A stretch of DNA of 64,000 nucleotides from an uncultured Verrucomicrobiae bacterium (GTDB taxonomy: Bacteria > Verrucomicrobiota > Verrucomicrobiia > Chthoniobacterales > UBA10450), in contig CAVTTH010000006.1 of assembly GCA_963737545.1 (NCBI GenBank), positions 119,538-183,537 of the forward strand, read 5' to 3'. The position numbers were made by a program, and so were the translations under genes. Numbering within the stretch: the first letter of the stretch is position 1; the number at the start of each line of letters is the position of its first letter. The notes under the pieces are model-generated. The model had not been told where the DNA came from and did not search any database. It saw only the letters and a program-made list of their open reading frames with translations. This document shows positions 27,403 to 42,578 of the stretch, piece by piece.

Positions 27403-27453
27403 TCTGACCGTCGCATTATTGAGTTCGACGTCTGGAAAAGTGCGACGGTCAGA
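27403..27453. terminator. Candidate bidirectional terminator hairpin between convergent genes
   Basis: A perfect 13-nt inverted repeat, tctgaccgtcgca (27403-27415) and tgcgacggtcaga (27441-27453), with a 25-nt loop. It overlaps the stop codon of the GHKL gene. There is no clear U-tract. Confidence 0.3.
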
Positions 27454-29185
27454 CCCGTGTCGATTCCGCTGCAGCGGCTTCAGTCTCGAAGTATGTAACC
27501 TCATCGTCTTCGATGAGATCTCGCTGTAGTCGGAAGAACTTCTCTCTGAATAGCAGCATTGGATCGGATTTTTCCTCATCCGGCTCGGCATCGTATTGTT
27601 TTTGAACCTGATGCTGAGCAACTACGATGAGCACATAGTTCGCCACCATCTCGAGAAACACCGGATCATTCTCGCTCTTTGTTCTTCGCTCCACGATCCT
27701 CGGGTGATTCGCATTAATCCAGATGATGCCCTTGGTGATCATGTCTCGATCGCTGACTGGATCATCGAACTCTCCGAATATCGGGCGATCATCCTGGGGA
27801 ACATTTGAATCGTCGGACATCAACACGCGCAAACCTTCCCGAGTTTTACGAGGCTGTATCGTCGTGGACGTCCTCGATCCGACGCGGACTGCGACGTCCT
27901 CGCCTCTTTTGTCGGGAACGAAAACAGGATTGCCTGGCTTCCGATGGCCATTTCCTTCATGGATTTTTTCCACCCACCGACCTTTTACAAAGGTTTCGGG
28001 CGGATCGTCCGGCGTGGGCCTTCGATATGTTTCGCCAAGGGCGTCCTCGTCGTCATCGTCGAAATCAGGTTTGTCGGTAGTTGAGCAACGTTTCTTTAGT
28101 TCCTTTAGTTCCCGTTTGAAGTTGAGCTCGCATCGTTTCAGAAACTTGCTCAGTTCCTTCATCTTTTCGTTCGAAGCGGTGAGCCGTCTTTCTCGCTCCT
28201 TTTTGCGTTGCTCCTCTTCAACTTCGGACACCGCCTTATAGACAGACTCCTTGAGGAATGTTTCAATCGCCTCCGTCAGATCATCGCCTTCTTCTAAGCC
28301 CTTGCGATTTTCCTTAACTGCGGAGGAATTCAACAATTTCTTCAGCGTCAACGATCCATTGAAATATTTTGAGAAGGGTCTCCCATCGTATCGTGATACT
28401 TCCAGATCAGCGACACTTGAAATGCTGTCCGTCACATCAATGAAGCTGTCTTTGTCGAGAGGTTTTTGGAAATACCTGAGCGTCAGAGACGGGACTCCTG
28501 CTTCTCCGTCGTGCAGTTCTTTTGGCGCCTGAAACCTCCAGGTTTTCAAGGCATCTCGAGGCTCGGTGTACCGAAGCGCTAGCGTTTCATCCTCCGATTT
28601 CTTGTGTAATCGCACCGAGACGTTTTGGTTCTTGAGGACGTGCCTAATGCGCGCCAATCGTTCTAAGCCAGCTACCAGTTCCATCAAATCTTGTGTCGAT
28701 TTGATGCTGTTCTCTAGTTCGACGACCGTTTGATTGGGCTTCTTGACCCGCTTGTTTCGATAGCCGCCTTTGGTGTAATCCCGCAAGATTTTCTTCCGTT
28801 TGGGATCCCACTTAAACCAGGCTTTGTTCTCACGACCGTCTTTGACCGAAGTGATCCAGCAATGCTGGAAATTCATGATGGCGTAAGCCTTGCCGCCGGT
28901 TCCAAACTGTCCGCTTACAGGTTCACCGTACCGTCTTCCGCTGGCGCTCTCGAAATAGAGGAAAAATTTGTTTTCAAAGTCTTCAAGGGACATTCCTTCG
29001 GCGAAATCACGAATGACAATCTTATCGATATGCCGTCCTCGGCGAGAATGTATTTCGACCTCAATCTTCTGGTCGCGAAACTTTTTAAGTCGACGGTACG
29101 AATCATCTGAATTTGTTATGTATTCGGCGATTCCCCGACCGTGGCTTCGACCACCTCTCCAGCGTTCAAGCTGCGCCTCCAGCAT
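27449..29185 (-). CDS. GHKL (Bergerat-fold, HATPase_c_3-like) ATPase with a ~400-aa uncharacterised C-terminal region
   Basis: It has an N-box-like GIAEYITNSDDS, a G1-like IRDFAEGMS and a G2-like SGQFGTGGKAYA within the first ~100 aa. After that come a charged, coiled-coil-like segment, an acidic DFDDDDED patch and a conserved-looking tail (IIWINANHPRIVERR). The DNA here is low-GC. Confidence 0.7.
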   Translation of the reverse strand: MLEAQLERWRGGRSHGRGIAEYITNSDDSYRRLKKFRDQKIEVEIHSRRGRHIDKIVIRDFAEGMSLEDFENKFFLYFESASGRRYGEPVSGQFGTGGKAYAIMNFQHCWITSVKDGRENKAWFKWDPKRKKILRDYTKGGYRNKRVKKPNQTVVELENSIKSTQDLMELVAGLERLARIRHVLKNQNVSVRLHKKSEDETLALRYTEPRDALKTWRFQAPKELHDGEAGVPSLTLRYFQKPLDKDSFIDVTDSISSVADLEVSRYDGRPFSKYFNGSLTLKKLLNSSAVKENRKGLEEGDDLTEAIETFLKESVYKAVSEVEEEQRKKERERRLTASNEKMKELSKFLKRCELNFKRELKELKKRCSTTDKPDFDDDDEDALGETYRRPTPDDPPETFVKGRWVEKIHEGNGHRKPGNPVFVPDKRGEDVAVRVGSRTSTTIQPRKTREGLRVLMSDDSNVPQDDRPIFGEFDDPVSDRDMITKGIIWINANHPRIVERRTKSENDPVFLEMVANYVLIVVAQHQVQKQYDAEPDEEKSDPMLLFREKFFRLQRDLIEDDEVTYFETEAAAAESTRV

Positions 29186-29207
29186 GTTGCCGACATTGAT
29201 TGTAACC

Positions 29208-29495
29208 TCATCTGACGCTCCCTTTTTTTCCTCTCATCTCGCCGGCACGTTTCAGGACTGTTCGAGAGTCTGGAAACTGCGGATAGCCACGCAATGAGTG
29301 CTTGTCAGGATTTATCAGCCAGCACTCAAGGACGAGTTCTTCGAGACTTAACTTTATGCCAAGCTCACGCGCTCTGCCGACAATCCAAATAATCAGTTTT
29401 TCGGTCGAGAGTTTCTTCAGTTCAGCGACCTCATCGCTGGCGGTGGCGATCTTCGGCAGCAGCGCTTTTGTTTCTTTCTTGGTGTCCATCAACAT
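29208..29495 (-). CDS. Small wHTH-like protein, paralogue 2
   Basis: 95 aa from the ATG at 29495, whose start overlaps the upstream stop (TAATG). ELVLECWLINPDKHSLRGYPQFPDSRTVLKRAGEMRG parallels DVAEEAFATYPGVFETWFDGKNIPDSALVLLTLNEAKRR of the upstream ORF. Confidence 0.5.
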   Translation of the reverse strand: MLMDTKKETKALLPKIATASDEVAELKKLSTEKLIIWIVGRARELGIKLSLEELVLECWLINPDKHSLRGYPQFPDSRTVLKRAGEMRGKKGSVR

Positions 29496-29917
29496 TACGA
29501 GCACTCCTTCGGTCGTTCTCGGCGGCGCTGAACGTCTCGTGCGAATGCGAGCCCCTTCTTTGTCAGTCGCCAGCCCTTGAACCAATCTCCTGCAGCGTAG
29601 CCCCACTCGCGCCGTTTAGCCTCGTTTAGTGTCAGCAGGACGAGCGCAGAGTCTGGAATATTTTTCCCATCGAACCATGTCTCGAATACCCCGGGATAGG
29701 TTGCGAAAGCCTCCTCCGCAACATCGCGCGTCGTTGCGCGTTCTCTGGTGGCTTTGCATTTAAGTAGCACGAATGCGATCTCAGGGACCATTCGGCTCCA
29801 CGCTGCCCGTTGCCTCTGTTCAAACTCTGCTTGGCGGTTTTCCATGGTGCGCTCAGACCACCGCAGGACGGCAGGGACCTTGCGCTTCTTTTTTCGTCGT
29901 TTCTTCATTTCAGCCAT
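29495..29917 (-). CDS. Small wHTH-like protein, paralogue 1, with a Lys/Arg-rich N-terminus
   Basis: 140-aa ORF. The C-terminal GDWFKGWRLTKKGLAFA looks like a winged-helix wing. Its start overlaps the VapC stop by 13 nt (start uncertain). Confidence 0.5.
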   Translation of the reverse strand: MAEMKKRRKKKRKVPAVLRWSERTMENRQAEFEQRQRAAWSRMVPEIAFVLLKCKATRERATTRDVAEEAFATYPGVFETWFDGKNIPDSALVLLTLNEAKRREWGYAAGDWFKGWRLTKKGLAFARDVQRRRERPKECS

Positions 29918-30309
29918 CCGATCTTGAGCTCCTTTTCCATCGCCTTAAATTCCGGATCGCCTGTCACGAACTCGGCCCGGCGTAGTTTCGCGAAGGCCGC
30001 GGCGAAGCAATCGGCGTAGGAGAGTTTTCTTGTTGCTTTAAAGATCGCCGCTTGCCGAACGAGTTCGAAGTTGACGGATTCCACGATGCTGATCGGCATC
30101 TGGGCAATATCCGAAGCGATCGATTTCGCCGCAGACTCGCTGCCACGGCGCATTGTCGTGTAGTAAATTTCCCCCCAATTGATCACGTGCATCAGCAGCG
30201 TGTGGCGCCCGGAGGTCGCGCCATGCAACAACTTCTCCACCTCTTCTGCGGCGGACTCTTCATTGAAGAGGGCAATGAGCGCCCAACTATCGAGGACCTT
30301 GGTCGCCAT
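29905..30309 (-). CDS. vapC: PIN-domain VapC-family toxin
   Basis: 134 aa with VLDSWALIA, SYADCFAAA and FVTGDPEF, the PIN acidic residues. Confidence 0.85.
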   Translation of the reverse strand: MATKVLDSWALIALFNEESAAEEVEKLLHGATSGRHTLLMHVINWGEIYYTTMRRGSESAAKSIASDIAQMPISIVESVNFELVRQAAIFKATRKLSYADCFAAAFAKLRRAEFVTGDPEFKAMEKELKIGWLK

Positions 30310-30310
30310 T

Positions 30311-30562
30311 TTACGAATCGCGTTGTCGATCTTCCTTTCGCCCTTCGACCAGGCCCTTCATGAGATCGAGATGCTTGTACTTTCCGCGCAGGCTGCGGAT
30401 GTACTTGCCAGTAATCGGCTTCAAGAGGATTCCCTCTTGCGTCGTCTGCACGATTGCCTGTGTGCCGTTCTCGATTTCGAATTCCCTGCGAATTTTTCGC
30501 GGGATGACCACTTGCCCCTTCACCGTGAACAAAACCGTGTCGACATTTGTTGAGTTCTTCAT
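30311..30562 (-). CDS. AbrB/MazE/SpoVT-family antitoxin
   Basis: 83 aa. TVKGQVVIPRKIRREFEIENGT is the SpoVT/AbrB swapped-hairpin motif. There is a 1-nt gap to vapC. Confidence 0.85.
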   Translation of the reverse strand: MKNSTNVDTVLFTVKGQVVIPRKIRREFEIENGTQAIVQTTQEGILLKPITGKYIRSLRGKYKHLDLMKGLVEGRKEDRQRDS

Positions 30563-30767
30563 TTGCTAGAAGTAAAGCATTTCCAAAAAGTAAGTCAAAC
30601 AAAAGAATTCATCCCAAATGATGGAAATACGACTGCAAATGTGTTGGGCAACTGAAAGAGACGTGTCGTTTCAACCACAAGAACAGCCTTGGGATCGATT
30701 TCGTGGCCGCGTGCGATAAGCTGGTCGCGACTTGCGGGTCATGATTCTCACCCATAAACTCGCGGCT

Positions 30768-31925
30768 ATGGCAAAATATAAAATCGCCTGGATGCCCGGT
30801 GACGGAGTCGGCAACGATGTCATGGAGGCGGCGCGTCTCGTGTTGGATCGCCTGAAACTCGACGCCGAATATGTGCCGTGTGAGATCGGCTGGAATTTTT
30901 GGTGCAAGGAAGGCAACGCGCTTCCCGATCGTACCGTCAAAGCTCTTAAAGAAACGACGTGTGGCCTTTTCGGCGCGATCACGAGCAAACCGCAAAGTGA
31001 AGCAAAGGAAGAATTGAGTCCGGAGCTGAAAGACAAGGGGCTGGTCTATTTTTCGCCGATCGTGAAGCTGCGCCAGATGTTCAACCTCCACACCAACATG
31101 CGGCCGTGTAAGAGCTATCGCGGCAATCCGCTGAATTTTCGCGGGAACAAGATCACGAATCCGAGCGGCGAAGATGTACCGATCGATCAGGTCGTCTTCC
31201 GTGAAAATACAGAAGGCATGTACGGCGGCGTTGAGTTCTTTCCGCTGCCGGAGGCGGTTTACACCGCGCTCTGCGCGAACCCGAAAATGAAGCCGTGGAA
31301 AGACAAAGCAGGTTTGGAAAATATCGCGCTCTCGACTCGCATTGTGAGCACACAGGGTTGCACCAATATTTGCAAGCAGGCCTTCGAGTTTGCCAGGAAA
31401 ACCGGACGCAAACGCGTCACATTAATCGAAAAACCGAACGTGCTGCGCGAAACAGGCGGCTTGATGATGCGTTGTTTCAAGGAAGTCGCGAAAAGCTACC
31501 CCGGCATTCGCGCGGACGACGCCAATATCGACGCGATTTGCATGTGGATGTTCAAGAATCCGCAGGATTATTCCGTGCTCGTCGCGGAAAATATGTTCGG
31601 TGACATCGTCAGCGATCTTTGCGCCGGGTTAGTCGGCGGGCTTGGTTTCGCGCCCAGCGCAAACCTCGGCGACAACTACGCCGTTTTCGAGCCGACGCAC
31701 GGCTCGGCCCCAAAATATGCCGGTCAATACAAGGTCAATCCGATCGCCATGCTTCTGACGACAAAGCTAATGCTCGACTGGCTCAAGGAAACTGATATGG
31801 CCACGCGTCTTGAAACCGCCGTTGCCCGCGTCATCGCCGAAGGCAAAGTGCGGACCTACGACATGGGGGGCAAGGCCTCAACGCTCGATGTCGCTAAAGC
31901 GATCGCGGATTACGCGAGTGCGTAA
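30768..31925 (+). CDS. Isocitrate/3-isopropylmalate/homoisocitrate dehydrogenase family enzyme
   Basis: MAKYKIAWMPGDGVGNDVM...NMFGDIVSDLCAGLVGGLGFAPSANLG is the family signature. Start at the ATG at 30768. Confidence 0.9.
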   Translation: MAKYKIAWMPGDGVGNDVMEAARLVLDRLKLDAEYVPCEIGWNFWCKEGNALPDRTVKALKETTCGLFGAITSKPQSEAKEELSPELKDKGLVYFSPIVKLRQMFNLHTNMRPCKSYRGNPLNFRGNKITNPSGEDVPIDQVVFRENTEGMYGGVEFFPLPEAVYTALCANPKMKPWKDKAGLENIALSTRIVSTQGCTNICKQAFEFARKTGRKRVTLIEKPNVLRETGGLMMRCFKEVAKSYPGIRADDANIDAICMWMFKNPQDYSVLVAENMFGDIVSDLCAGLVGGLGFAPSANLGDNYAVFEPTHGSAPKYAGQYKVNPIAMLLTTKLMLDWLKETDMATRLETAVARVIAEGKVRTYDMGGKASTLDVAKAIADYASA

Positions 31926-31948
31926 TCAGCGCCCGTTCTCGGTAGTCG

Positions 31949-32200
31949 TTGATCGAAATGGAAATCATCTATACGGACGTCGCCCTCGAAGATTTGCGCC
32001 GCATTCCGAGACGGTTTGCCGCACAGATTGTGGCGAAGATTTCGCGGCTCGAACATGGGTTGCGCGGGAACATCAAGCGGCTGACGAATTTCGACAGTGA
32101 TTACCGGCTACGCTGCGGAGATTATCGAGTGCTATTCGATGTTGAAGGCGCAGAAATTCTCGTCCATCGTGTGCTGCACCGTAAAGAGGCTTATGATTAA
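31949..32200 (+). CDS. RelE/ParE-family type II toxin
   Basis: 83 aa. DYRLRCGDYRVLFDVEGAEILVHRVLHRKEAY is the RelE/ParE C-terminal pattern. Confidence 0.8.
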   Translation: MIEMEIIYTDVALEDLRRIPRRFAAQIVAKISRLEHGLRGNIKRLTNFDSDYRLRCGDYRVLFDVEGAEILVHRVLHRKEAYD

Positions 32201-32375
32201 AACCTCATTCAAGAAGTTCGCCGTCGAGATCGCCCGCAAGCGCCGCGAGATGACGCGTTTGCAGGAGGACCTCGGGGATATGCTGGATCATCTTGCTGTG
32301 ATCGAAGCGCGCGCAAAGTCTGCGAACGGAAAGCGCTATTCGACCGCAGAAGTGAAACGCGCACTGAAGATCTGA
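32193..32375 (+). CDS. Putative cognate antitoxin (small helical protein), encoded downstream of the toxin
   Basis: 60 aa from the ATG at 32193, overlapping the toxin stop (ATGATTAA). It has no recognisable family; the call is positional only. Confidence 0.4.
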   Translation: MIKTSFKKFAVEIARKRREMTRLQEDLGDMLDHLAVIEARAKSANGKRYSTAEVKRALKI

Positions 32376-32422
32376 GCAGGGCGACAACCGTCTTCAAGCC
32401 GACGCACGGATCCGTTTAAGCC

Positions 32423-32620
32423 ATGAAAATCCAGTATTTCCAGGACACAGATACGCTCTACATCGAGTTTAAGGCTTCAAAAGTGGCAGAGACCCGCGAT
32501 CTGGATGAAAACACACTTCTTGATTTAGATGATAAGGGAAATATCCGGGGCATAACCGTCGAGCACGCCAGCGATCGCGCGGATATCCCACGCTTCTCAT
32601 ACGAGCAGGTCGCAATCTAA
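32423..32620 (+). CDS. DUF2283 domain protein
   Basis: MKIQYFQDTDTLYIEFKASKVAETRDLDENTLLDLDDKGNIRGITVEHAS is the typical DUF2283 pattern. Confidence 0.8.
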   Translation: MKIQYFQDTDTLYIEFKASKVAETRDLDENTLLDLDDKGNIRGITVEHASDRADIPRFSYEQVAI

Positions 32621-32626
32621 GGAAGC

Positions 32627-32783
32627 GACGACAAAGCTAATGCTCGACTGGCTTAAGGAAACCGACATGGCGACGGGTCTTAAAACCGTCATCGCCGGAG
32701 GCAAAGTGCGGACTTACGACATGGGGGGCACAGCTTCCACGCTCGACGTAGCCAAAGCCATTGGTGACTACGCCAGCTCATGA
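32627..32783 (+). pseudogene. Detached second copy of the 3' end of the dehydrogenase gene (last ~51 codons)
   Basis: It reads TTKLMLDWLKETDMATGLKTVIAGGKVRTYDMGGTASTLDVAKAIGDYASS*, against TTKLMLDWLKETDMATRLETAVARVIAEGKVRTYDMGGKASTLDVAKAIADYASA* at 31757-31925. It carries a 12-nt deletion and many third-position differences. Confidence 0.85.
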
Positions 32784-32866
32784 CGCTCCATCGGCTCCGG
32801 CAAACTCCGGCTCTCACGACGTGTCCGGCATCATCTATCTCGTGAATAATGCATGTTGCAGTTTAA

Positions 32867-33280
32867 TCACTGCCCGCCACGACTTCCACGCGACCAAACG
32901 GGAACGCCGTTGTCGTCGCGGAGTTTCAAGACTTCGTTTCCCTTCTTGATTTGAGCGGCGACGATAGCCGGTTTTCCATCCATCGTTACACGGGAGCCAA
33001 TCACGCTGATTGTGTCGTTGGTTTCGATGTGCGGCGTCTGCTTGTCGATGTACCAGGCGGGTCCAAGGTGCACGGGGATAGTTTCCTTGTCCGTTTGCAG
33101 CATGAGATGAACTCCGTAGCCGCGATTTTTTGCCGGTGTAGTTTTCTCCACCGACAATACTTTTCCTTGGATTGTTTCAACCGTCTTTGGATCGTAGTTT
33201 CGCTGAGCAGCAGCGCTGGACACTCCAAATGCCGCTGCGATTGCCGTGGCAACAAGGATCAAGTTTGTTGTCTTCTTCAT
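32867..33280 (-). CDS. Secreted/periplasmic protein of unknown function
   Basis: 137 aa with a signal peptide (MKKTTNLILVATAIAAAFGVSSAAA) and a beta-rich body. I cannot name a family with confidence. Confidence 0.55.
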   Translation of the reverse strand: MKKTTNLILVATAIAAAFGVSSAAAQRNYDPKTVETIQGKVLSVEKTTPAKNRGYGVHLMLQTDKETIPVHLGPAWYIDKQTPHIETNDTISVIGSRVTMDGKPAIVAAQIKKGNEVLKLRDDNGVPVWSRGSRGGQ

Positions 33281-33448
33281 TCTTTCATTTCTTCTTTGGT
33301 GTCATTTGCCTTTCTCTATTTCTAAAATTGCCACGCTGACTGCCCTGTCGCAACAAACGGTGAGCTCTGAACAAGCAATGCAAAGCATGATCTAGTTCGA
33401 TCATTGAGGATGGCCACGAGCAAATCTCACGAATAGATTCACGAAACT

Positions 33449-33667
33449 ATGAAAAGACAAAGCATCATCTACCTCGTCGCTGGCACGCTCGTGCTCACCG
33501 GTCTCGCCCTTGGCCTTTGGGTGAGCCATCTCTGGCTGCTTCTCTCAGCCTTCGTTGGCCTCAACCTTTTCCAAACAGCCTTCACTGGGTTTTGCCCGCT
33601 CGAGCGAATCCTCATCAAGCTGGGCATCGGCCGAGCCGGCGAAGAGTGCGGCGCCGCCCGTCAATAG
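33449..33667 (+). CDS. DUF2892 (YgaP-like two-TM) family protein
   Basis: 72 aa. It has two TM helices and a FQTAFTGFCPLERIL motif. Confidence 0.75.
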   Translation: MKRQSIIYLVAGTLVLTGLALGLWVSHLWLLLSAFVGLNLFQTAFTGFCPLERILIKLGIGRAGEECGAARQ

Positions 33668-33673
33668 GCGGCG

Positions 33674-34693
33674 ATGAATCTACCGCGTTTGCTCCTCACG
33701 GTCATCGGCGGGCTCGCTCTGGTTGGGTGTGATTCGAAAAAGGAAAGCGCGCCTGAGTTGTTGCCGCCGGTCGCGGTCCGCACCGTCGTGGTGGAAAGCA
33801 AGGAGCGTCCATCGAGCGAAGAAGTCGTCGGCACGGTGCGGGCAAAACTTCGCGCTGCGATTGAAGCGAAGGTCAGCGCGCGAATCGAGGCACTGCTGGT
33901 CGCCCCGGGGCAGATGATTAAGGCCGGAGACCTGATCGCGCAGCTGGATCCACGTGAGATCCAGGCGAAGTTGGATCAGGCGCTCGCTCTTCGCGAACAG
34001 GCGACGCGTGATCTCGCCCGCGGTCGCGAGTTGCGCGATAAGAAAATCACGACGCAGGCCGATTTCGATGCGGTCCAGGCGCGGGCCAGCGTCGCCGAAG
34101 GAGCAGCACGAGAGATGGAGACGATGCTCGGCTACACGAAAGTCGTCGCGCCTTTTGATGGAATCGTAACTCGCAAACTGGCCGATGTCGGCGACCTCGC
34201 CGCACCCGGCAAACCAATTATTGAAATGGAAGATCCGCGCGCGTTGCGCTTCGAGGCCGACGTGCCCGAGGCGCTCATCGGCAACGTGAAGCTCGGCGCC
34301 AAACTTCCCGTCCAAGTGGCCGAAGGCGCGGCGCCGATCGAGAGCACAGTCGTTGAGATAGCGCCTGTGGCCGATGCCGCGAGCCGCACCTTTCTCGTGA
34401 AGCTCGATCTGCCCGCTACGCAAGGCGTACGCAGCGGCCAATTCGGACGAGTCTGGGTCCCGACCGGCGAAACCAAATCGATCCGCGTGCCGTCGTCAGC
34501 GGTCGTGACGCGCGGACAAATGGAGTGTGTCTTCGTCGTCGTGAATGAGCACACCGAACTCCGCCTCGTCCGAACCGGCAAACACGCAGGCGGCGAAGTG
34601 GAAATTCTCGCTGGCCTCAGCTCCGGCGAACGCGTTGTCATCGACGGCGCGGAATCGCTGCGCGACGGCCAACCCACCACTCTAAAGCAATGA
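33674..34693 (+). CDS. RND efflux periplasmic adaptor (membrane fusion protein), lipoprotein
   Basis: It has a lipobox LALVGC and an HlyD_D23/biotinyl-lipoyl-like [11 protein letters not shown]. It overlaps the RND pump start by 4 nt. Confidence 0.9.
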
Positions 34694-37600
34694 AGACGGA
34701 CGCTGCGCGAGCGAGCGGCATCGCCGGGCGCATCGCGCGCGCCTTCATCGACGCGAAACTCACGCCCCTCATCGTGGTCGCGTCGATTCTGCTCGGCTTC
34801 GGTGCAATCATTCTGCTGCCGCGCGAGGAGGAGCCACAGATCAAGGTGCCGATGGTCGATGTGATGGTGAACATGGCCGGCTTCAGCGCGAAGGAAGTCG
34901 AAGAGCGCGCGACGCGCCCGATGGAGAAACTGCTCTGGGAAATCCCGGGCGTTGAATACATCTACTCGACTTCGCGCGACAGCGAGAGCCTCGTCATCGT
35001 TCGGTTCAAAGTCGGCTCCGGCCCTGAGGAATGTCTCGTTAGGCTGACGGAAAAACTGCGCTCGAACTACGACCGCATCCCGCACGGCGTCGGCACCCCG
35101 TTGATCAAGCCGAAGTCGATCGATGACGTGCCGATCCTCGCGCTTACTTTCCATAGCGCGCGCTACGATCATCTCACCCTTCGCCGGTTGGTCGCGGAAG
35201 TAGACGACGCGGTCAAAGCTGTTCCGCTCGTCGCGGAGACAACCATCATCGGCGGCTCGCGACGCCAGGTGCGCCTGTTGCTCGATCCGGTGCGGCTCGC
35301 GTCGCGCAATCTCAGTCCGGCCGGCCTTGTGCCGATGCTGCAGCAGGCAAATCGGCAGTATCGCTCCGGTGGCCTAACGACGAACAATCAGGAGTTCGTG
35401 ATCGAAACCGGCGCGTTTCTCACCAGCGCCGAGGATGTGGGGAATGTCGTCGTCGGTGTCTTCGGCGGTCGGCCCGTCTATTTGCGCGAGGTTGCGAAAA
35501 TCGTCGATGGCGCGGAAGAGCCGTCGAACTACACGTTTTTCGGCCGGGGAGCGCACGCGACTCGCGTGCCAATCGCGGCGACTCGCCGCGATTCCTCTTC
35601 GCGCGGAGAAGTCGGCGAGTCGCGTGCGCTCGCCAGCGAAGAACCGGCCGTCACCCTCAGTATCGCGAAACGCCCGGGTGCGAACGCGATCTCCGTCACG
35701 CACGAGGTGCTGCGGAAGATCGAGACGCTGAAGGGGACGCTCATCCCGCGCGATGTAGAAGTTTCGATCACGCGCAACTACGGCGAAACGGCGGCGGAAA
35801 AATCGAACGAGCTGCTCTTTCACATGGGCCTCGCCGTCATCGGGGTGTCGCTTCTCATCTGGCTCACGCTTGGCTGGCGCGAATCGACCATCGTCGCGCT
35901 CGCCATCCCAGCCACGCTCGCGCTCACTCTGCTCGTTTTTTATTTGCTCGGCTTTACTCTCAATCGCATCACGCTTTTCGCGCTCATCTTTTCCATCGGC
36001 ATTCTGGTCGATGACGCGATCGTGGTGGTGGAAAACATCGTCCGGCATTTTCATCTCCGGCAAAACAAAGGCCGCAACTGGGACGCGATCGCGGTGGAAG
36101 CGGTTAGCGAAGTCGGCAACCCAACGATCCTCGCGACCTTCGCCGTCATCGCCGCGGTCCTGCCAATGGCGTTCGTCGGGGGACTGATGGGACCGTACAT
36201 GCGGCCGATCCCGATCGGCGCGAGCGCCGCGATGGGCTGGTCGCTCGCCATCGCATTCATTGTCACGCCGTGGGCTTCGATCCGCATCTTGCGCTGGGGG
36301 AAAAAGTATTCGCGCCTAACCGAAGGCACCGCGGCCGCCGGCACGCAAAGCCACTTCGCGCACGAGGAAGATTTCTTCACTCGGATTTATCGGCGGCTGA
36401 TGGGACCGATGATCGCTCAGCCGCGCTGGCGCTGGATTTTTCTCGGTTCGATCACCGGCTTGCTCCTGCTGGCGATGGCGCTGGTCGCACTCGGCTGGGT
36501 GAAAGTGAAAATGCTGCCATTCGACAACAAGAGCGAATTCCAGGTAATCCTGAATATGCCCGAGGGCAGTTCGCTCGAACGGACCGCGCAAGCGGCGCGC
36601 GAGATAGCTGCCGCCGTCCGTACGGAGCCGGAAGTGACCGATTACCAAATCTACGCTGGCGTCGCCGCGCCGTATAATTTCAACGGACTCGTGCGCCATT
36701 ATTTTCTGCGCCAGGGTGCGAACGTCGCGGACATTCAGGTAAATCTGCTGCCGAAAGGGAACCGGAGCGCGCAGAGCCACGACATCGCGAAGCGCGTGCG
36801 ACCGCGCGTCGCAGCGATCGCGGCGAAATACGATGCGCGCGTCGCGGTCGCGGAAGTGCCGCCCGGCCCTCCAGTGTTACAAACGCTCGTCGCCGAAGTC
36901 TATGGCCCTAACGAATCCGATCGTCACGCCCTCGCGCGCAAGGTGCGCGACATTTTCAAAAGCACGCCGGGCGTGGTCGACGTCGATTGGTATGTCGAAG
37001 CCGACCAGCCGAAAGCGCGCTTCGTTATCGACAAGGAAAAAGCCGCGCTTCACGGCATCAGCGCCGAGACAATTTCGCAGACGCTGCGCATCGCCGTCGG
37101 CGGCGAGTCGGTCGATCTCCTCCATTTGCCGCGCGAAAAAGAGGACGTAAACATCATGCTCGAGCTGCCGCGTTCCGCGCGGACGACGCCCGATGAGTTG
37201 CTCGCGCTTCGCGTCCGGTCCGGCGACGCCAATGCGCTGCCCGAACCCGGCGCCACTGGCACGGCGCCGCTCATCCCGTTGCGCGAGCTGGTGCGCATCG
37301 AGCAGACCACCACGGAGAAAAGCATCTATCACAAAAACCTGATGCCGGTGACCTATGTGATTGGCGACGCGGCCGGCGTTACCGAAAGTCCCGTCTACGC
37401 GATCCTGAAAATGAACAAGGCGCTTGCCAAACTCGACACGCGCGAGTTCGGCGGCGACGGCACGCCGGTGCAAATCTACAACGCCGTCCAGCCTTTCACC
37501 GAAGCGAAGCCCGCACTGAAATGGGACGGTGAATGGCAAATCACGATCGAAGTCTTCCGCGACCTCGGTTCCGCCTTCGCCGTCGTCCTCGTGCTCATCT

Positions 37601-38067
37601 ACGTGTTGATGGTCGGCTGGTTCCGCAACTTCATCACACCAATCGTAGTGATGGTCGCGATCCCGTTCTCGCTCGTCGGCATTCTGCCTGCGCATGGACT
37701 GCTCGGCGCGTTCTTTTCCGCCACCTCGATGATCGGTTTCATGGCGGGCGCCGGAATCGTCGTGCGCAACTCGATCATCCTCGTCGATTTCATTGAGCGA
37801 AGGCTTGCCGAGGGAATGCCGCTCGCCGAAGCCGTCGTCGATGCCGGTGCGGTCCGGTTTCGTCCCATGTTCCTCACCGCGCTCGCCGTCGTAGTCGGCG
37901 CGAGCGTCATTCTGGCCGATCCAATTTTCAAAGGCCTCGCCATTGCATTGATGGCCGGCGAAATCGCGTCGCTTCTCATCAGTCGCATGGCGGTGCCGGT
38001 GCTTTATTTCATGGCGAATTACCGGACGCACCGTGCAGCCCGACAGGGCACCACACCCACATCATAA
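34690..38067 (+). CDS. RND family efflux permease (AcrB/CzcA type)
   Basis: 1125 aa with 12-TM architecture. It has [17 protein letters not shown] and [13 protein letters not shown] motifs. Confidence 0.95.
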
Positions 38068-38075
38068 AAAAATAG

Positions 38076-38242
38076 GGAACCGCTTCGTGGGTGATCGCCG
38101 AAGGCAAGGTGTCCACGCACGATATGTTCGGTCGCCGCGGCAACACGGACTCGCCCCACCACGGCGGGCAAGCTGTGGCGAGGGCGGCAAAAACTCGACG
38201 CTCGACGTGGCCAAAGCGATCGCCGATTACGCCGGTTCGTAA
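38076..38242 (+). pseudogene. Detached third, more degraded copy of the dehydrogenase 3' end
   Basis: VIAEGKVSTHDM, then an insertion of about 56 nt, then GGKNSTLDVAKAIADYAGS* in another frame. Compare VIAEGKVRTYDMGGKASTLDVAKAIADYASA* at 31840-31925. Confidence 0.75.
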
Positions 38243-38343
38243 GGCTGTCAGACAGTCTCTTGGATCGATTTGCCTCGACATGCGGTTCGACCGTGGTCGA
38301 GAAATATCTTACTATTCGTTAAGAGCTTATATAAATTCCGGCT

Positions 38344-38835
38344 ATGCCTCCCTCGGAACGTTGGACTCACATCACCAGAAATTACGCAGAGCGCTGCGTC
38401 ACCGCTCGTATTCAGCGCCAAAAGCTCCGTCTCCAGGCAAATTTCGGTCTGAGCAAATACAAAACATGGGCTCGAGCGGAACGCGCTGCGAAGAGTTGGT
38501 TGCGCCGGAAACTTCCGACGTTACCCAGCGCGATTAGTTCAAAAGATAGAATGACCCGCCGCAACACTTCTGGCGTTGTCGGCGTTCATCCCGCTTACCA
38601 TGTTATTCGCAGACGTGGGAAAACGTACGAATATTTCAAGTGGGTATCTCGTTGGCCCGGCTGCAAGCTGGCCGGCGGTGTAGGCTGGTCAACAAACAAG
38701 CATGGTGACGACGAAGCTTGGATCTTGGCCGTTAAATGTCGACGCATGGAAAATGAGAATCGCGATGATGTCATCGAGGCGGTCGCTCGCATGAGTAATA
38801 ACAGGTATTCGGCCATTCTTAAGCTGCGCAGATGA
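38344..38835 (+). CDS. AP2-like DNA-binding domain protein
   Basis: 163 aa. RRNTSGVVGVHPAY....GKTYEYFKWVSRW.......GWSTNKHGDDEAWILAV resembles the AP2/integrase-type DNA-binding domain. There is no recombinase catalytic domain. The region is low-GC. Confidence 0.55.
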   Translation: MPPSERWTHITRNYAERCVTARIQRQKLRLQANFGLSKYKTWARAERAAKSWLRRKLPTLPSAISSKDRMTRRNTSGVVGVHPAYHVIRRRGKTYEYFKWVSRWPGCKLAGGVGWSTNKHGDDEAWILAVKCRRMENENRDDVIEAVARMSNNRYSAILKLRR

Positions 38836-39036
38836 GACCTTAAATGTGGCCCTTTACACAATCACGCAAAGCAAAGGAGCAGACTTACCAAGACGTTGGT
38901 GTCCGATTGATTGCCACGCTTGTGACACAACTGCGTTTGCCGGGCTGGGGAACGAACTTATTGCCAACGTATTCGGCTCGATGAAATCTCGGCTATTTCC
39001 GGTTAGCCGTGACTGTCAGTTCCGTCGAAGATCGAG

Positions 39037-39916
39037 TCATGACGTTGCGGTGCTTGGATCAGGCCTCAGTCGCTCGATCGCTTGAAGAACCTCTAATGCG
39101 AACGAGTGAAACGTCCACATCGTATAATTCAGCTCGTCGGGGGATAAACGAAGCCGATCACCGACGGGAAAGCGCTTCTCTACTGGCCCGATTCTGAGAT
39201 TAACCGTGGATTCATTTCTTGTTGGCGTGAGCTGCGGAATAAAAGTTTCGGCTCCCGGAACAGAATCGATGGATCACGCATGCGCATCGCCTGCCATTTG
39301 ATCGTGAAGAAATCCTTCCCTTTGGAATCCTTCGAGGACACAACGCCGCGCCGGTGCACAAGACAGTTACGCGCTTGATTCAGCGTTAGGACGTGCTCGT
39401 CAAATTGGAAAGTAGCACAACACTTTTCTCGCAAATATTCGATCTTTTCGGGGAATTTTTTCCAGTCAAACTCCTTGTGCTTAGTTTTCCAAGACTCGAT
39501 CTCCAGTCTTCACCGCTAATTGTCGTCGATCCTAGGGAGTGAAAGGTACTAAGACTCTGCTCTCCTCCAGAAACTCACCCATTCGATCGATTGCCTCGGT
39601 AAAGGCGTTCTTTAAGCACCAGAAAAGGTGTTCATCCTTTATCTGAGAAAATGGCAGCAACTCGTGGAGTTGCAGTGCGGCGGCGAACGGGCTGACCTCT
39701 GCTATCGTGTTCTCTCCCTGGACGTTCCGAACACCGGTTACTCCAATAGAAACTAAGTCGACTAGGCGCTGTAAATATCGCGATCCAGTTTGGCCAGCGC
39801 AGCGGGTAGATTGACGTTAACACTAATATGTTTGATCCCGGATTTCGCTTGCAGTCCCCTTCCGCTAGATGCTCAACCATAGGTCCAACGGCTAGTAGCT
39901 TCGCGAATGTTTGCAC
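39037..39916 (-). pseudogene. Decayed gene remnant readable in three frames, with a possible HEPN-type Rx4H motif
   Basis: Own translation gives protein-like pieces in different frames: ...VNLPAALAKLDRDIYSA*, ...IGVTGVRNVQGENTIAEVSPFAAALQLHELLPFSQIKDEHLFWCLKNAFTEAIDRMGEFLEE..*, ...LTLNQARNCLVHRRGVVS..* and VEKRFPVGDRLRLSPDELNYTMWTFHSFALEVLQAIERL..*. RNCLVH fits R-x4-H. Confidence 0.35.
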
Positions 39917-40400
39917 CCCAACTTCGTATGAGTGAAGCCCGTTCCGAGATTATGCGTCGCTTTAGCGCAGCATTTTCCTCTGCAAATCCAATCGATTTTT
40001 CCTTAATCTCATCGTAGCTGACAATCTGTCCAACACAGGACGTCAACATCTCGTTGCACAGCAGATTGGTCTTGAACATCCTTTCAAGATCGTCCTGCAA
40101 CTGCGGAACATAAAATTCAACGAGCAGCTCCAACTTTTCCAACAGATCGGCCATGAGCATTTGCTCGAACGGCAATGGCCATTTTGCGGGAATCGCCCCT
40201 TTTTGAAATGCGACCACCATAGCGGGCTCGAAACGCTCCATGTTGCGTGCCCCAATTTCAAGCAACAACAAATACACTTCTTCCAACTTTCCCAACAACA
40301 ATCGCGAGCGTTCCCTTCGATGAATTATCCATTGCGATGCGGCAAGCACGATGAAGGCAACAGCCGCGCTAATAAACGCAGAGATTAACGCAGGGATCAT
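39873..40400 (-). CDS. N-terminally anchored hypothetical protein (last gene of the packed array)
   Basis: Internal ATG at 40400 (MIPALISAFISAAVAFIVLAASQW...). Its start overlaps the upstream stop as ATGA. The upstream part of the listed 252-aa ORF is Arg-rich shadow. Confidence 0.5.
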   Translation of the reverse strand: MIPALISAFISAAVAFIVLAASQWIIHRRERSRLLLGKLEEVYLLLLEIGARNMERFEPAMVVAFQKGAIPAKWPLPFEQMLMADLLEKLELLVEFYVPQLQDDLERMFKTNLLCNEMLTSCVGQIVSYDEIKEKSIGFAEENAALKRRIISERASLIRSWGANIREATSRWTYG

Positions 40401-40612
40401 CCTTTTAACCCATCGATTGAGGTTTGAGAGAGCTCGGCGTCGTTGGCGAGCAAGTGATACCAGCTCGCGAAATGCTCGTGCACCACCTGGGCGGCAGCGG
40501 ACCGGACAGCGTGGGTGTTCTGCCGGATCTGCAATGCGACGTAGATCAAGGACACCACCACGGCGACCGCGCCGATGACTTGTCCGAGATTGGCGAGATC
40601 GTTGAGATTCAT
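40397..40612 (-). CDS. Short (71-aa) member of the MN(L/W)xxLAxxGQ membrane-anchored family
   Basis: MNLNDLANLGQVIGAVAVVVSLIYVALQIRQNT.... It is about half the length of its neighbours and may be truncated. Confidence 0.45.
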   Translation of the reverse strand: MNLNDLANLGQVIGAVAVVVSLIYVALQIRQNTHAVRSAAAQVVHEHFASWYHLLANDAELSQTSIDGLKG

Positions 40613-40614
40613 GT

Positions 40615-41058
40615 TCAACCAAGCAGCCCATTCACCCATCGCGCAAAGTCTTCCGAAAAGCTCGGGCCAATATCATCCCAGACTTCCTTGAAGCCACGCG
40701 ATTGGATGTACTTCGTCATGTATCGCGCGTACCCGCGCCAGTGGGCATCTGGCATGAGCTTCAATTCGTGATGATGAAAATAGGTCTCGGCATGCAGGAG
40801 CACTTGGATGTGGCTCCAATACTGGAAGTAACGATCCCCATCGGTTAGCTCCGCGGCGCTCTCGAGTTTGGCAAATCGATCGGCGTGCTCGGCCCGAAAG
40901 ATGGAGAAGCGCAGAGCGAACTCAGAGAGAGCATGGCGGGCCTGAGCGTTCGCGACTTTCGTGTTGCCGCGGATTTGAACGGCGAGGTAAACGAGCGTGA
41001 TAATGATACCGATCGCGCCGATGATCTGTCCAAGATTGGCGAGGTCGTTGAGATTCAT
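40615..41058 (-). CDS. Membrane-anchored small protein, same family (possibly DUF4760-like)
   Basis: MNLNDLANLGQIIGAIGIIITLVYLAVQIRGNTKV..., 147 aa. The family name is from memory and is uncertain. Confidence 0.55.
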   Translation of the reverse strand: MNLNDLANLGQIIGAIGIIITLVYLAVQIRGNTKVANAQARHALSEFALRFSIFRAEHADRFAKLESAAELTDGDRYFQYWSHIQVLLHAETYFHHHELKLMPDAHWRGYARYMTKYIQSRGFKEVWDDIGPSFSEDFARWVNGLLG

Positions 41059-41073
41059 GGTCGCTAATGAGAG

Positions 41074-41481
41074 CTAGCCATCGATGCCGTGTTTCAGCTG
41101 CCGTTCGTATTCCGCGGCATCGAAGTGGCCCTTCGACTCCGCGATGAGACCGTCATTGTCGATCTTCCAAAGTTCGTATCCGCTGATTCGAACGCGTTTT
41201 CCAGTGCCGCCCGGGCCGGTATTCGTTCCGATCAAGGTCCAATGAAATGCCGTTCGATCTCCGCGAGGCTCCAACTTGTCGAAGGTCACGATCATGTCCG
41301 GAAATGTTGTCATGAACGCTTGCGCTTCCCTGGCAATCGCCGCGCGTCCAACTGAGGGTGGTCCGTTGTTAATGCTTAGCGAACCGTTCTCGGCAAAGAA
41401 CGCAGCGACACTTTCAGGATTCTGGCTGCACCACACCTTGGCATAGCGTTCCGCAAATTTAGTTAACTCGTCACTGGTCAC
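41074..41481 (-). CDS. SnoaL-like / NTF2-fold (ester cyclase-like) protein
   Basis: 135 aa. FAERYAKVWCSQNPESVAAFFAENGSLSINNGPP..GRAAI...F...PD is the typical SnoaL-like pattern. Confidence 0.8.
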   Translation of the reverse strand: MTSDELTKFAERYAKVWCSQNPESVAAFFAENGSLSINNGPPSVGRAAIAREAQAFMTTFPDMIVTFDKLEPRGDRTAFHWTLIGTNTGPGGTGKRVRISGYELWKIDNDGLIAESKGHFDAAEYERQLKHGIDG

Positions 41482-41997: not shown

Positions 41998-42025
41998 AGG
42001 ATGGAGATCATGAGGGAGCAGCTTG

Positions 42026-42541: not shown

Positions 42542-42550
42542 GTTTCTAAA

Positions 42551-42578
42551 GTGACGTGTGACAAGTGACGAGTGACAA
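42551..42578. repeat. Four tandem heptamers GTGACNN in an intergenic spacer
   Basis: The sequence is gtgacgt gtgacaa gtgacga gtgacaa. The related ttgtcac ttgtcac occurs at 14525-14538. Confidence 0.6.

Follow-up and report, generated by a model that had tools for sequence, protein, structure and literature searches.

Small cassettes separated by copies of a gene's 3' end behind an Iso_dh-family gene in a Chthoniobacterales genome

The Iso_dh-family gene and the cassettes that follow it

The window, that is, the whole 64-kb stretch of DNA analysed, contains an intact Iso_dh-family gene that anchors an array of small cassettes (Table 1). Judging from its sequence, the gene product is probably a homoisocitrate dehydrogenase. 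The best NCBIfam matches were homoisocitrate dehydrogenases, all under the curated cut-off, and the upstream neighbour passed the homoaconitase equivalog TIGR00139. Besides the homoaconitase, the upstream side carries in the window a HATPase/PIN-MazE islet. Orthologues in 170 loci showed a protein identity of 88-95%; the exact protein had no database record, and a metagenome scan for a closer relative returned none above 95% protein identity.

Table 1. Features of the array, in coordinates of the window
Feature	Position	Strand	Evidence or remark
Iso_dh-family gene, intact, 385 aa	30768..31925	+	Array anchor; PF00180, E=2.6e-81
Copy 1, functional 3' end	31757..31925	+	Profile 132-299; part of the Iso_dh-family gene
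ParE/RelE-type toxin, cassette 1	31958..32200	+	PF05016, E=5.6e-10
Putative antitoxin, 59 aa, cassette 1	32196..32375	+	Position only
c_A remnant, first ~35 nt of the copy closing cassette 1	32378..32412	+	Profile ~42-80; matches gene 31667-31705
Right part of DUF4258-DUF2283 toxin-antitoxin-like module, cassette 2	32413..32626	+	PF10049, E=4e-18
c_B (second copy of the sequence-only reading), closes cassette 2	32627..32783	+	Profile 132-298; profile match E=3.4e-35
137-aa protein, signal-peptide-like N-terminus, cassette 3	32867..33280	-	ORF
YgaP-like membrane protein (DUF2892), cassette 3	33449..33667	+	PF11127, E=1.2e-9
RND membrane-fusion (adaptor) protein, cassette 3	33674..34693	+	HlyD_3 and HlyD_D23 matches
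RND pump, 1125 aa, cassette 3	34690..38067	+	PF00873, E=3e-157
c_C (third copy of the sequence-only reading), oldest tail copy	38076..38242	+	Starts at ~profile 187; profile matches
GC-rich palindromic insert interrupting c_C	38127..38181		Conserved among pseudo-copies of other genomes

Four direct copies of the gene's 3' end, the 35-nt remnant c_A included, follow one another from the gene onwards and mark off three cassettes behind it. An earlier sequence-only reading had described the gene end as present three times and as delimiting two islets. Its three copies were all found where it had placed them, far beyond chance; it overlooked the fourth copy, c_A, and given this remnant the cassettes number three rather than two.

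Cassette 1 comprises a ParE toxin and a putative antitoxin, and it also trails the Iso_dh-family gene in L081, L129, L134, and L135. The 59-aa antitoxin candidate had no Pfam or NCBIfam match; its ORF overlaps the toxin gene, sits downstream of it, and is conserved alongside it in the same four loci. Of the RelE-like toxin and antitoxin first called here, the toxin was confirmed by PF05016, and the antitoxin is called from its position. Cassette 2 is a truncated DUF4258-DUF2283 module that retains only DUF2283 (32423-32620), followed by the spacer GGAAGC, and the remnant matches, at 93-98% identity, the module of L041, L071, L081-L090, and L159, where DUF4258 leads it. Cassette 3 encodes an RND adaptor/pump pair, preceded by a putative secreted protein and a YgaP-like protein; no outer-membrane factor gene is present in the cassette. 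The 137-aa putative secreted protein had no significant family match and occurs in cassette 3 of the window genome only; L004, L010, and L037, in which the RND cassette lies immediately behind the gene, go straight to the YgaP-like gene. The domain matches agree with the cargo first read from the letters (ParE_toxin, DUF2283, YgaP-like TM, formerly DUF2892, HlyD-type adaptor, and ACR_tran pump). An "AP2-like" ORF at 38344-38835 received no Pfam or NCBIfam support.

For the tail copies, we built a profile from the last 300 nt of 78 orthologues, to which all profile positions refer. Overall, c_B is 83-84% identical to 31757-31925; the identity between copy 1 and c_B is 0.90-0.92 over profile 132-239 and only 0.72 over the last 54 nt. 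As described earlier, c_B stays in frame with a 12-nt deletion and differs mostly at third codon positions, which account for 18 of its 25 substitutions against its own gene. The junction between GGAAGC and profile 132 is constant across all genomes with the DUF2283 module but L041 (profile 66). A complete c_A (profile 37-299) is kept at the equivalent place in L129, L134, and L135, in the order gene-ParE-antitoxin-copy, and the c_A of L081 is truncated identically to that of the window. As far as sequence comparison tells, the remainder of the c_A in the window was lost by deletion.

The third copy, c_C, gave two profile matches, at 38085-38131 (E=9.9e-4) and 38182-38241 (E=1.7e-10), and its junction with the RND stop codon is identical in L004 and L088. 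It had been described as degraded by an insertion of about 56 nt; the insert of ~50-56 nt is present, but it is a conserved palindromic element and not random decay. The same insert is common to ~25 pseudo-copies of other genomes and was found in 0 of 168 functional genes, whereas c_B and the L129-type copy lack it. In many pseudo-copies, this hairpin-rich element lies ~60 nt upstream of the stop, and it also occurs in frame within the neighbouring PrpD-like gene.

The site in related genomes and the search for a recombinase

We compared 161 related Chthoniobacterales/Udaeobacter loci. Twenty of them are empty behind the gene, and 52 hold one to four extra tail copies, all direct and downstream. 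The cargo is small and mostly toxin-antitoxin, comprising HigBA, MazE-PIN, HepT-MNT, DUF4258-DUF2283, and ParE. The sequence-only reading had proposed such a comparison and held that the same copies with no cargo variation would contradict integration; empty sites and very different cargo were found instead. It had also expected an alignment to define a shared att core. No single core emerged. Each cargo type has its own junction to the trailing copy, and the left ends fall at 12 or more positions; all copies retain at least the last 42 nt of the gene. Cassette order varies as well, with RND ahead of DUF2283 in L088 and L090 and the opposite in the window. Additionally, gene-to-pseudo-copy units of 100-130 nt occur in L007, L018, L062, and others, and the same architecture was found at three more gene ends nearby (homoaconitase 3', PrpD-like 5', and Iso_dh 5').

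The same cassettes and junctions were recovered in independent assemblies from different studies (L081, L088, and L129), and those of L082 in six samples. In all genome pairs with a gene identity of 96% or more, the two arrays were the same, so that no event could be observed while under way.

The search for a recombinase and for vehicles was negative throughout. In the 64-kb window, the matches listed included no integrase or transposase, and there was no match to a tRNA or an Rfam family; the absence of a visible integrase had been noted before. No integrase was found within +/-10 kb in 171 loci, taken as 20-kb loci only, nor in the islets, and no recombinase was found among the called genes of L081-L090. 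Relatives of the e14 IntE or PinE seeds were absent from the 5494 ORFs of all loci, in a screen that used a single seed for tyrosine recombinases. Likewise, Phage_integrase did not appear among the matches listed for 22 integrase-sized representatives near arrays. None of the 171 loci carries an ICE, IME, or prophage at the Iso_dh site. No viral contig carrying the gene tail was found, nor an integrase on such a contig, and islet 1 had no match in plasmid and phage collections. Public runs, which cover 8% of the sampled words at most and these in short contigs only, yielded no informative excision joints.

Origin of the copies and a possible mode of array growth

The copies are foreign to the gene that they trail. 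Over their last 54 nt, they share an identity of 0.743 with their own gene and 0.741 with the genes of others (median rank 79 of 157), and longer copies are likewise no closer to their own gene than to others. By codon position, the differences are 0.139/0.109/0.407 in the copies versus 0.117/0.077/0.451 in functional genes, and 0.156/0.158/0.439 in short untranslatable copies. Because this third-position-biased diversity extends even to untranslatable short copies, we consider the copies to be former functional tails, in line with the earlier proposal that they evolved as coding sequence in different lineages. At synonymous sites, the copies have diverged far more than the adjacent module, and copies and module therefore have separate histories. 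Two other origins were rejected. Neutral decay of a single cargo-borne founder copy is excluded by the third-position bias in untranslatable copies, and a long target-site duplication is excluded since the tails differ like orthologues.

The last ~50-60 nt of the functional gene (31866-31925 here) behave as imported sequence in relatives. Across nine genomes, the gene body tracks tail 132-239 (Spearman 0.55) and not the last 46 nt (0.07). Between L084 and L085, the last 47 nt are identical and the cargo is 97% identical, compared with 86% for the rest of the gene; in this one pair, the last ~50 nt of the functional tail travel with the cargo. In the trailing copies, the stretch 132-239 best matches the own gene in four of nine genomes (0.90-0.93), which fits gap repair and duplicated host sequence, and the part upstream of the last ~50 nt is only 0.78 identical between genomes with a cargo identity of 0.95. 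The switch from own to foreign sequence recurs near profile 240-250, and shared tracts have variable left breakpoints, such as -47 and +10 from the stop. For the DUF2283 cassette, a crossover as in e14, placed at the copy's left edge, was rejected, as the functional 132-239 follows the gene body and is not common to genomes sharing the DUF2283 cargo. The c_B tail could have arrived with the RND cassette, but the stretch available for comparison is short.

We propose that the array grew by serial tail displacement, through homology-anchored insertion-duplication at a hot spot behind a housekeeping gene, and we regard the chances of this being right as evenly balanced. Incoming DNA from a related lineage would contain the last stretch of the gene, cargo after the stop, and the start of a tail copy, and it would pair with the resident gene via the homologous tail. 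Integration would occur by Campbell-type (ends-in, insertion-duplication) homologous recombination. The functional gene would retain its body and gain the imported last ~50 nt, the cargo would be placed behind its stop codon, and the old tail, with a duplicated stretch of the host gene, would be shifted downstream as a 5'-truncated pseudo-copy. Each junction between cargo and trailing copy would have formed once by illegitimate joining and then been inherited. Repeated events would stack cassettes, the newest adjoining the gene, and recombination between copies would reorder and delete them; in the window, a deletion would have fused cassettes 1 and 2. The layout of the array, the patterns among relatives, and the foreign origin of the tails are demonstrated by the sequence comparisons; we infer the use of homologous recombination rather than a dedicated recombinase, as well as the physical form and entry route of the incoming DNA. 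The footprint of serial integration at a protein-coding 3' end, as first suggested, stands as serial acquisition, with neither a single att core nor an integrase found.

Several lines of evidence count for tail displacement: the empty sites and the one to four direct downstream copies; the small, recombinase-free, mostly toxin-antitoxin cargo; the foreignness of the copies to their own gene, with third-position-biased diversity; the imported functional tail combined with own-like 132-239 in trailing copies; the at least 12 left boundaries and variable cassette order; and the same architecture at other gene ends with no recombinase found. Against it counts that homologous recombination is inefficient over 60-260 nt at ~80% identity, that the gene body shows practically no correlation with the trailing copy (0.04), and that no event was seen under way. 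A recombinase encoded elsewhere in the genome would also escape a search of 20-kb loci. The recurrent switch at profile 240-250 and the constant retention of the last 42 nt are what a site-specific core would look like. Furthermore, cargo-copy junctions are identical in lineages whose trailing copies diverge within the first few bases, so tail displacement would have to invoke gap repair or conversion extending all the way to the junction.

Known systems, alternative explanations, and implications

A metabolic gene as target had been regarded as the exception; it is not unusual, as Escherichia coli e14 and phage 21 integrate into icd, a homologue of the Iso_dh-family gene (PMC13626634), and the two targets belong to the same enzyme superfamily (BLASTP E=1e-42). 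At icd, as here, inserted DNA separates an intact full gene from a displaced direct 3' pseudo-copy downstream (icdC, 165 nt). The icdC duplicate is 92.7% identical to the icd tail, with 11 of 12 differences at third positions, so in both systems functional and displaced tails differ mostly synonymously, and the duplicated segment begins within 4 codons of the profile-132 junction. An element-borne functional tail and a displaced former tail are likewise found in both. Excision of e14 rejoins icd with the pseudo-copy as a functional chimera (PMC13626634). On the other hand, the 15-kb prophage e14 encodes an integrase and an excisionase and crosses over at a fixed point, whereas the inserts of the Iso_dh array span 0.1-6 kb, have no integrase, are stacked up to four deep, and have at least 12 left boundaries.

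In streptococci, ICESt3-family elements target fda, rpsI, and rpmG, inserting at their 3' ends, and both CIMEs (1.2-13 kb) and microCIMEs without genes (130-220 bp) lie in variable order at housekeeping gene 3' ends (PMC7563491). The Iso_dh array resembles them in its tandem units that lack a recombinase, lie behind a housekeeping gene with gene-end repeats between them, vary in order, and are in some cases gene-less. CIMEs, however, are derived from ICEs or IMEs and have integrase-bearing kin at the same sites in sister strains, of which none was seen in the 171 loci here, and their att repeats are short and uniform, whereas those of the Iso_dh array measure 40-260 nt with cassette-specific lengths. 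For Rhs, CdiA, and T6SS effector-immunity arrays, a model of homology-facilitated illegitimate recombination has been put forward (PMC5361080 and references therein). There too, the full gene is trailed by orphan 3' fragments derived from other lineages and not from duplication, the newest module adjoins the gene, and there is no integrase; their homologous anchor with a non-homologous joint would have its counterpart in the Iso_dh array, to which the variable boundaries, the other gene ends of like architecture, and the own-like duplicated segments point indirectly. What is displaced there is a variable toxin domain paired with an immunity gene, and tip diversification is the point. The Iso_dh tail, by contrast, belongs to the conserved sequence of a metabolic enzyme, shows no length variation in 168 functional genes, and is followed by cargo that bears no relation to the gene. 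Chromosomal integrons share the small, toxin-antitoxin-rich cassettes, each followed by a repeat and shuffled in order between genomes. Unlike them, the Iso_dh array has no intI or attI beside it, its repeats are gene fragments and not attC hairpins, and its cassettes have their own promoter-like sequences, with some genes on the opposite strand.

The main competitor, which we judge rather unlikely, is site-specific accretion, in which the cassettes would be decayed integrative elements of the CIME/microCIME kind or satellites, inserted one by one into an att in the last ~50 nt by a tyrosine or serine recombinase that is supplied in trans, either from another place in the genome or by an incoming ICE or phage. 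The architecture is of the icd-e14-icdC type, the CIMEs and gene-less microCIMEs set a precedent for variable order at housekeeping 3' ends (PMC7563491), and the 100-130-nt units of L007, L018, L062, and others resemble microCIMEs. All copies keep the last 42 nt or more, the imported functional part begins ~47-60 nt upstream of the stop, and the conserved hairpin-rich insert of the pseudo-copies is located exactly at the start of that part. However, searches of the window, the islets, and +/-10 kb of the 170 other loci revealed no recombinase, no locus had an ICE, IME, or prophage at the site, and no viral contig carried the tail. A core near the stop predicts that the upstream part of the trailing copy moves along with the cargo, but it is own-like in four of nine genomes and only 0.78 identical where the cargo is 0.95 identical. 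The partial copies of three other gene ends, which flank neighbouring islets, would also demand several specificities. A related reading, in which the gene tail with its palindromic insert forms a dedicated recombination site for a trans-acting recombinase, appears improbable.

Two further explanations compete with tail displacement. Selection of the trailing copies for a function of their own, as a small peptide of the last ~50 residues or as terminators or insulators, would make their conservation a matter of function and not of origin, with translation from the GGAAGC ribosome-binding-like spacer behind DUF2283. Long copies are open to the original stop in the window, L015, L033, L036, L041, L061, and L071, gene callers give 51-66-aa ORFs at trailing copies, the substitutions are third-position-biased, and the spacer TAAGGAAGC is conserved. 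We nevertheless consider this very unlikely, as the same bias holds in short copies that have no start codon and lie behind a frame-breaking 37-nt insert, the copies differ at synonymous sites far more than the adjacent module does, their histories being different, and many copies are frameshifted or truncated (c_C of the window, L081, L085, and L069). Local tandem duplication followed by decay and unrelated insertions, or an artefact of metagenome assembly, is scarcely credible. The repeats are indeed direct, near one another, and downstream of the gene, as duplication would have them, and the sequence-only reading had named local duplication as a possible refutation. Duplication is contradicted by the distance of the copies from their own gene, to which they are no nearer than to the genes of 156 other genomes; moreover, the cargo is not duplicated, and the same cassettes and junctions recur in independent assemblies (L081, L088, L129, and L082 in six samples).

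The lineages of Candidatus Udaeobacter and its kin rank among the most abundant soil bacteria, and the movement of chromosomal toxin-antitoxin modules between genomes is poorly understood. Here, the junctions are preserved in dozens of these lineages. Behind one conserved gene, small toxin-antitoxin cassettes are piled up together with an RND efflux cassette, with former tails between them and no recombinase in sight, and the 3' end of an isocitrate-dehydrogenase-family gene, which phages have long been known to target in E. coli, serves in a comparable way in a distant phylum. If the improbable dedicated-site reading were true, abundant soil Verrucomicrobia would own an integron-like cassette platform based on a housekeeping gene and not on an integrase gene. 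If homology-anchored insertion-duplication is correct, any conserved gene end could serve as a portable landing pad, and there would be a general integrase-free route for cargo among diverged relatives, together with a simple sequence signature for spotting such sites in metagenomes.

Tail copies and cassettes behind the dehydrogenase gene

The array is anchored by a full-length gene of the isocitrate/isopropylmalate dehydrogenase family (PF00180, E=2.6e-81). This gene is probably the homoisocitrate dehydrogenase of lysine biosynthesis, because its closest named relatives are homoisocitrate dehydrogenases, every one under the curated cut-off, and the upstream gene passes the homoaconitase equivalog. 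The species itself was absent from all collections searched at >95% protein identity, and reads in public archives give no coverage of it.

The final 300 nt of 78 orthologues served to build a profile (positions 1-299; position 1 is window position 31626, the stop ~297-299). Copy 2, 83-84% identical to the last ~170 nt of the gene, has lost 12 nt in frame, and 18 of the 25 aligned sites that differ are third codon positions; copy 3 recurs in two pieces. The profile E-values exclude chance for both. Direct comparison and profile matches thus agree with the sequence-only reading on the places of these copies, and on copy 2 being in frame with mostly third-position differences. The three gene ends counted there are real, but a fourth copy exists, similar to gene positions 31667-31705 (profile ~42-80). 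Three metagenome contigs (L129, L134, L135), colinear with the window up to 32412, carry the gene, ParE and its putative antitoxin and then a full copy that starts at profile 37 and reaches the stop. In other genomes, DUF2283 comes second in a DUF4258-DUF2283 pair, which has a promoter/operator-like region of its own. In the window and in the related locus L081, a ~600-nt deletion took the rest of the first trailing copy, the promoter region and DUF4258. With the deletion and the fourth copy, the locus reads as three cassettes (cargo plus trailing copy), not as the two islets first described. The cargo identities proposed earlier hold, and no integrase, as already noted, and no transposase, tRNA or Rfam family was found across the window.

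Coordinates of the features in the window and in related loci
Feature	Sequence	Position	Strand	Observation
Homoaconitase gene	window	25399-27378		
Islet	window	27449-30602		3.2 kb, lower GC, between homoaconitase and dehydrogenase (spacer ~50-200 nt in many relatives); 578-aa HATPase_c_3 protein, two unknown ORFs, PIN/MazE toxin-antitoxin pair; no homoaconitase 3' copy detected
Dehydrogenase gene	window	30768-31925	+	
Remnant copy	window	32378-32412		closes cassette 1 (ParE, putative antitoxin)
Copy 2	window	32627-32783		E=3.4e-35; closes cassette 2 (DUF2283)
Copy 3	window	38076-38242		closes cassette 3 (137-aa protein, YgaP-like, adaptor, RND pump)
Copy 3, pieces	window	38085-38131; 38182-38241		E=9.9e-4; E=1.7e-10
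Palindromic insert	window	38127-38181		
DNA after copy 3	window	38243-40400		GC 0.50-0.535; ORFs without family hit
Usual downstream neighbours	window	40423-43161		DUF4760-like membrane proteins, SnoaL-like protein
Lipocalin-like gene	window	48997-49455	+	small, secreted (~150 aa); 72-83% nucleotide identity; longest ORF here spurious, opposite strand
Direct repeat	window	11997-13675; 53952-55634		1.7 kb, 92.9% identical, 42 kb apart
Adenylate-cyclase/TPR and ~600-aa TPR proteins	window	44370-63919		large paralogous family in right third
Tandem paralogues	window	56368-63428		four, within that family
RVT_1 gene	L084	6730-8532	-	~600-660 aa, just past tail copy
RVT_1 gene	L118	12142-14118	-	~600-660 aa, just past tail copy
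Intergenic repeat	L009; L013; L038; L071	~1350-1450; ~15800 and ~17200; ~12600; ~9700		~100 nt

The insertion of ~56 nt reported in copy 3 is present, although it is a conserved GC-rich palindromic element (stems GTCCG..CGGAC and CTCGCC..GGCGAG, loops of varying length) and not a mere insertion. It lies directly after ..GACATG in ~25 pseudo-copies of other genomes and in 0 of 168 functional genes.

The pseudo-copies with this mini-insert include those of loci L006, L007, L013, L018, L041, L043, L058, L062, L069, L070 and L080, and PrpD-like genes carry it in L012, L013, L016, L034, L044, L052, L053, L073, L074 and L076. It is hypervariable (30-80 nt, stems conserved, loops variable) and follows an ATG|GGnGG motif in both settings. 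In the functional MmgE/PrpD-like neighbour it is in frame, between 'HYRAM' and 'GK-ATAFVSGF', and the L053 PrpD insert DNA is nearly identical to the pseudo-copy insert. Ectopic conversion between neighbours, a tiny mobile palindrome or template switching are possible explanations.

The GC content falls after copy 3, as described earlier; the AP2-like label given to a 163-aa ORF there found no support in Pfam or NCBIfam. Because the relatives' usual neighbours resume beyond it, this stretch probably represents one more insertion, with no tail copy detected.

The site in related genomes

Two scans and one exact-protein look-up yielded 170 related loci, as 2-21 kb pieces of metagenome assemblies. 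All are Chthoniobacterales or Candidatus Udaeobacter MAGs or soil contigs, with dehydrogenases 88-95% identical at the protein level. The conserved neighbourhood comprises homoaconitase, the dehydrogenase and, in many genomes, a following MmgE/PrpD-like gene; at an empty site the ATG of this last gene is only 14-21 nt beyond the dehydrogenase stop. Among the 161 loci with at least 300 nt downstream, 20 were empty, 52 had one to four extra tail copies, and 89 had other DNA with no detectable copy. The extra copies were all direct and downstream; no inverted or upstream copy was found among the 161 loci. The segments between copies are small and for the most part toxin-antitoxin modules (HigB/HigA, MazE/PIN, HepT/MNT, two DUF4258/DUF2283 kinds, ParE and an unnamed 75/93-aa pair of this type), together with a DUF2971 protein, a zinc-ribbon protein and the RND cassette. 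The comparison proposed earlier thus returned empty sites and widely varying cargo, not the same three copies with constant cargo.

Each cargo type has its own fixed junction to the following copy. The copy starts at profile 37 behind ParE-antitoxin, 107 behind DUF2971, 132 behind the 65-aa DUF2283 (always after the spacer GGAAGC; 66 in L041), ~155 behind the 75/93-aa pair, ~163 behind MazE/PIN, ~170 behind the 79-aa DUF2283 and ~187 behind the RND cassette, while short pseudo-copies directly behind the gene start at 199-229. Cassette order varies: L088 and L090 have RND-copy-DUF4258-DUF2283-copy, the reverse of the window, and L004, L010 and L037 have the RND cassette alone behind the gene. 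Indels confined to pseudo-copies (a 21-nt insertion, the palindromic insert) are common to trailing copies of different cargo types; therefore, the copies recombined with each other.

Several other elements were observed at these loci. The lipocalin-like gene lies in many relatives between the dehydrogenase and PrpD-like genes (as a tandem pair in L031). A conserved promoter-like motif, CTTGAAAATCTGCGCGGCCCGATCAAAG, occurs ~50 nt upstream of displaced PrpD-like genes (L004, L007, L013, L014, L016, L032, L056, L057) and ahead of the trailing copy in L061 (5090-5150); possibly it is a promoter that reads outward from the right end of inserted DNA. The intergenic repeat (..GGGGAGCGCACGCGCC.TCGCGTGCTGGCGA..TTCGGCGAGGGCGCCGAAA..GCACG) looks like a REP- or MITE-type element. 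The RVT_1 genes found past a tail copy in L084 and L118 code for reverse transcriptases. Islets comparable to that upstream of the dehydrogenase end in a 40-70-nt homoaconitase 3' copy in L005, L037, L043, L103, L109, L110 and L123.

Origin of the copies and the part that moves

Over the last 54 nt, 51 copies had a mean identity of 0.743 to their own gene tail and 0.741 to those of 156 other genomes (median rank of the own gene, 79), and longer copies behaved alike. Copies no closer to their own gene than to others rule out local duplication of the gene end. Pairwise differences by codon position were 0.139/0.109/0.407 for trailing copies behind the same DUF2283 module and 0.117/0.077/0.451 for functional genes; this third-position bias rules out neutral decay from one founder copy. 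Selection on a translated peptide is likewise ruled out as its cause, since short copies without a start codon, after the frame-breaking insert, show the same bias (0.156/0.158/0.439). By these comparisons the copies are former functional tails of different alleles, and the earlier proposal that copies 1 and 2 evolved as coding sequence in different lineages holds.

Tail segments were compared in nine genomes with the DUF2283 cassette, the identities resting on 46-108-nt stretches. Gene-body identity predicted tail positions 132-239 (Spearman 0.55) and not the last 46 nt (0.07). The gene bodies of L084 and L085 are 86% identical, yet their last 47 nt are identical and the cargo that follows is 97% identical; the shared tract stops at the cargo-copy junction. 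Positions 132-239 of the trailing copy are closest to the own gene in 4 of the 9 genomes (0.90-0.93), whereas its last 54 nt are not; copy 2 of the window has 0.90-0.92 and 0.72, respectively. Therefore, the last ~50 nt of the functional gene are imported, its former tail survives in the pseudo-copy, and the part from the cargo junction to ~position 245 is duplicated host sequence.

Proposed homologous recombination, possible site-specific accretion and known systems

Serial insertion at the tail by homologous recombination has, in our judgement, an even chance of being correct, and we infer the whole mechanism. A Campbell-type (ends-in) event would fit the observed pattern: the incoming DNA, in circular or linear form, would be made up of the tail, the cargo and the beginning of a tail copy, with the host gene serving as template for repair of the gap. 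Such a model would account for why the junction is fixed and inherited from the donor, why sequences diverge at once to its right, why left breakpoints vary and all copies are direct, why the newest cassette lies next to the gene, and why a recombinase is lacking. Founder cargo-copy junctions would have been made by illegitimate joining, as in the homology-facilitated illegitimate recombination proposed for Rhs and T6SS arrays (PMC5361080). No event in progress was seen; arrays were identical in every genome pair with >=96% gene identity.

The main rival, accretion by a site-specific recombinase encoded elsewhere, seems rather unlikely, despite strong precedent in e14 at icd and in streptococcal CIMEs and microCIMEs. 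The last 42 nt or more are kept in every copy, and the own-to-foreign switch recurs near position 240-250, where the hairpin-rich insert also lies, as a recombination site might predict. However, searches of the window, the islets and +/-10 kb of the 170 loci revealed no recombinase (tyrosine recombinases being sought with a single seed and among the 25 Pfam families listed per alignment), no locus held an ICE or prophage at the site, and no viral contigs with the tail were found. Moreover, the part of the trailing copy expected to be element-borne, with a core near the stop, is not common to genomes sharing cargo.

A metabolic gene, which the sequence-only reading set apart from tRNA targets, is not an unusual site of integration. 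The e14 prophage of E. coli K-12 starts 165 nt short of the end of icd, a homologue of the dehydrogenase, and the icdC pseudogene follows; here too the insert is bracketed by direct 3' tail copies. The tails of icd and icdC share 92.7% identity; of their 12 differences, 11 fall at third positions. In the alignment, four codons separate the start of the duplicated segment from the profile-132 junction. When e14 is excised, icd is joined again to icdC (PMC13626634). At the 3' ends of fda, rpsI and rpmG in streptococci, CIMEs lacking an integrase build up in variable order, as do gene-less microCIMEs of 130-220 bp (PMC7563491). Integration into a metabolic-gene 3' end with tail replacement, and tandem accretion of integrase-less units, were thus already known.

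What is new is the very small, toxin-antitoxin-rich, integrase-free cassettes with cassette-specific repeat lengths, in stacks of up to four behind a housekeeping gene of an uncultured, globally abundant soil lineage, and the evidence for exchange of only the last ~50 nt of the gene. The same architecture at neighbouring gene ends is also new: the spacer between homoaconitase and dehydrogenase contains partial copies of the homoaconitase 3' end (L005, L037, L043, L103 and others), partial PrpD-like 5' copies lie ahead of islets in L034 and L057, and a partial dehydrogenase 5' copy occurs in L002. This recurrence supports what would be a general, homology-driven process.
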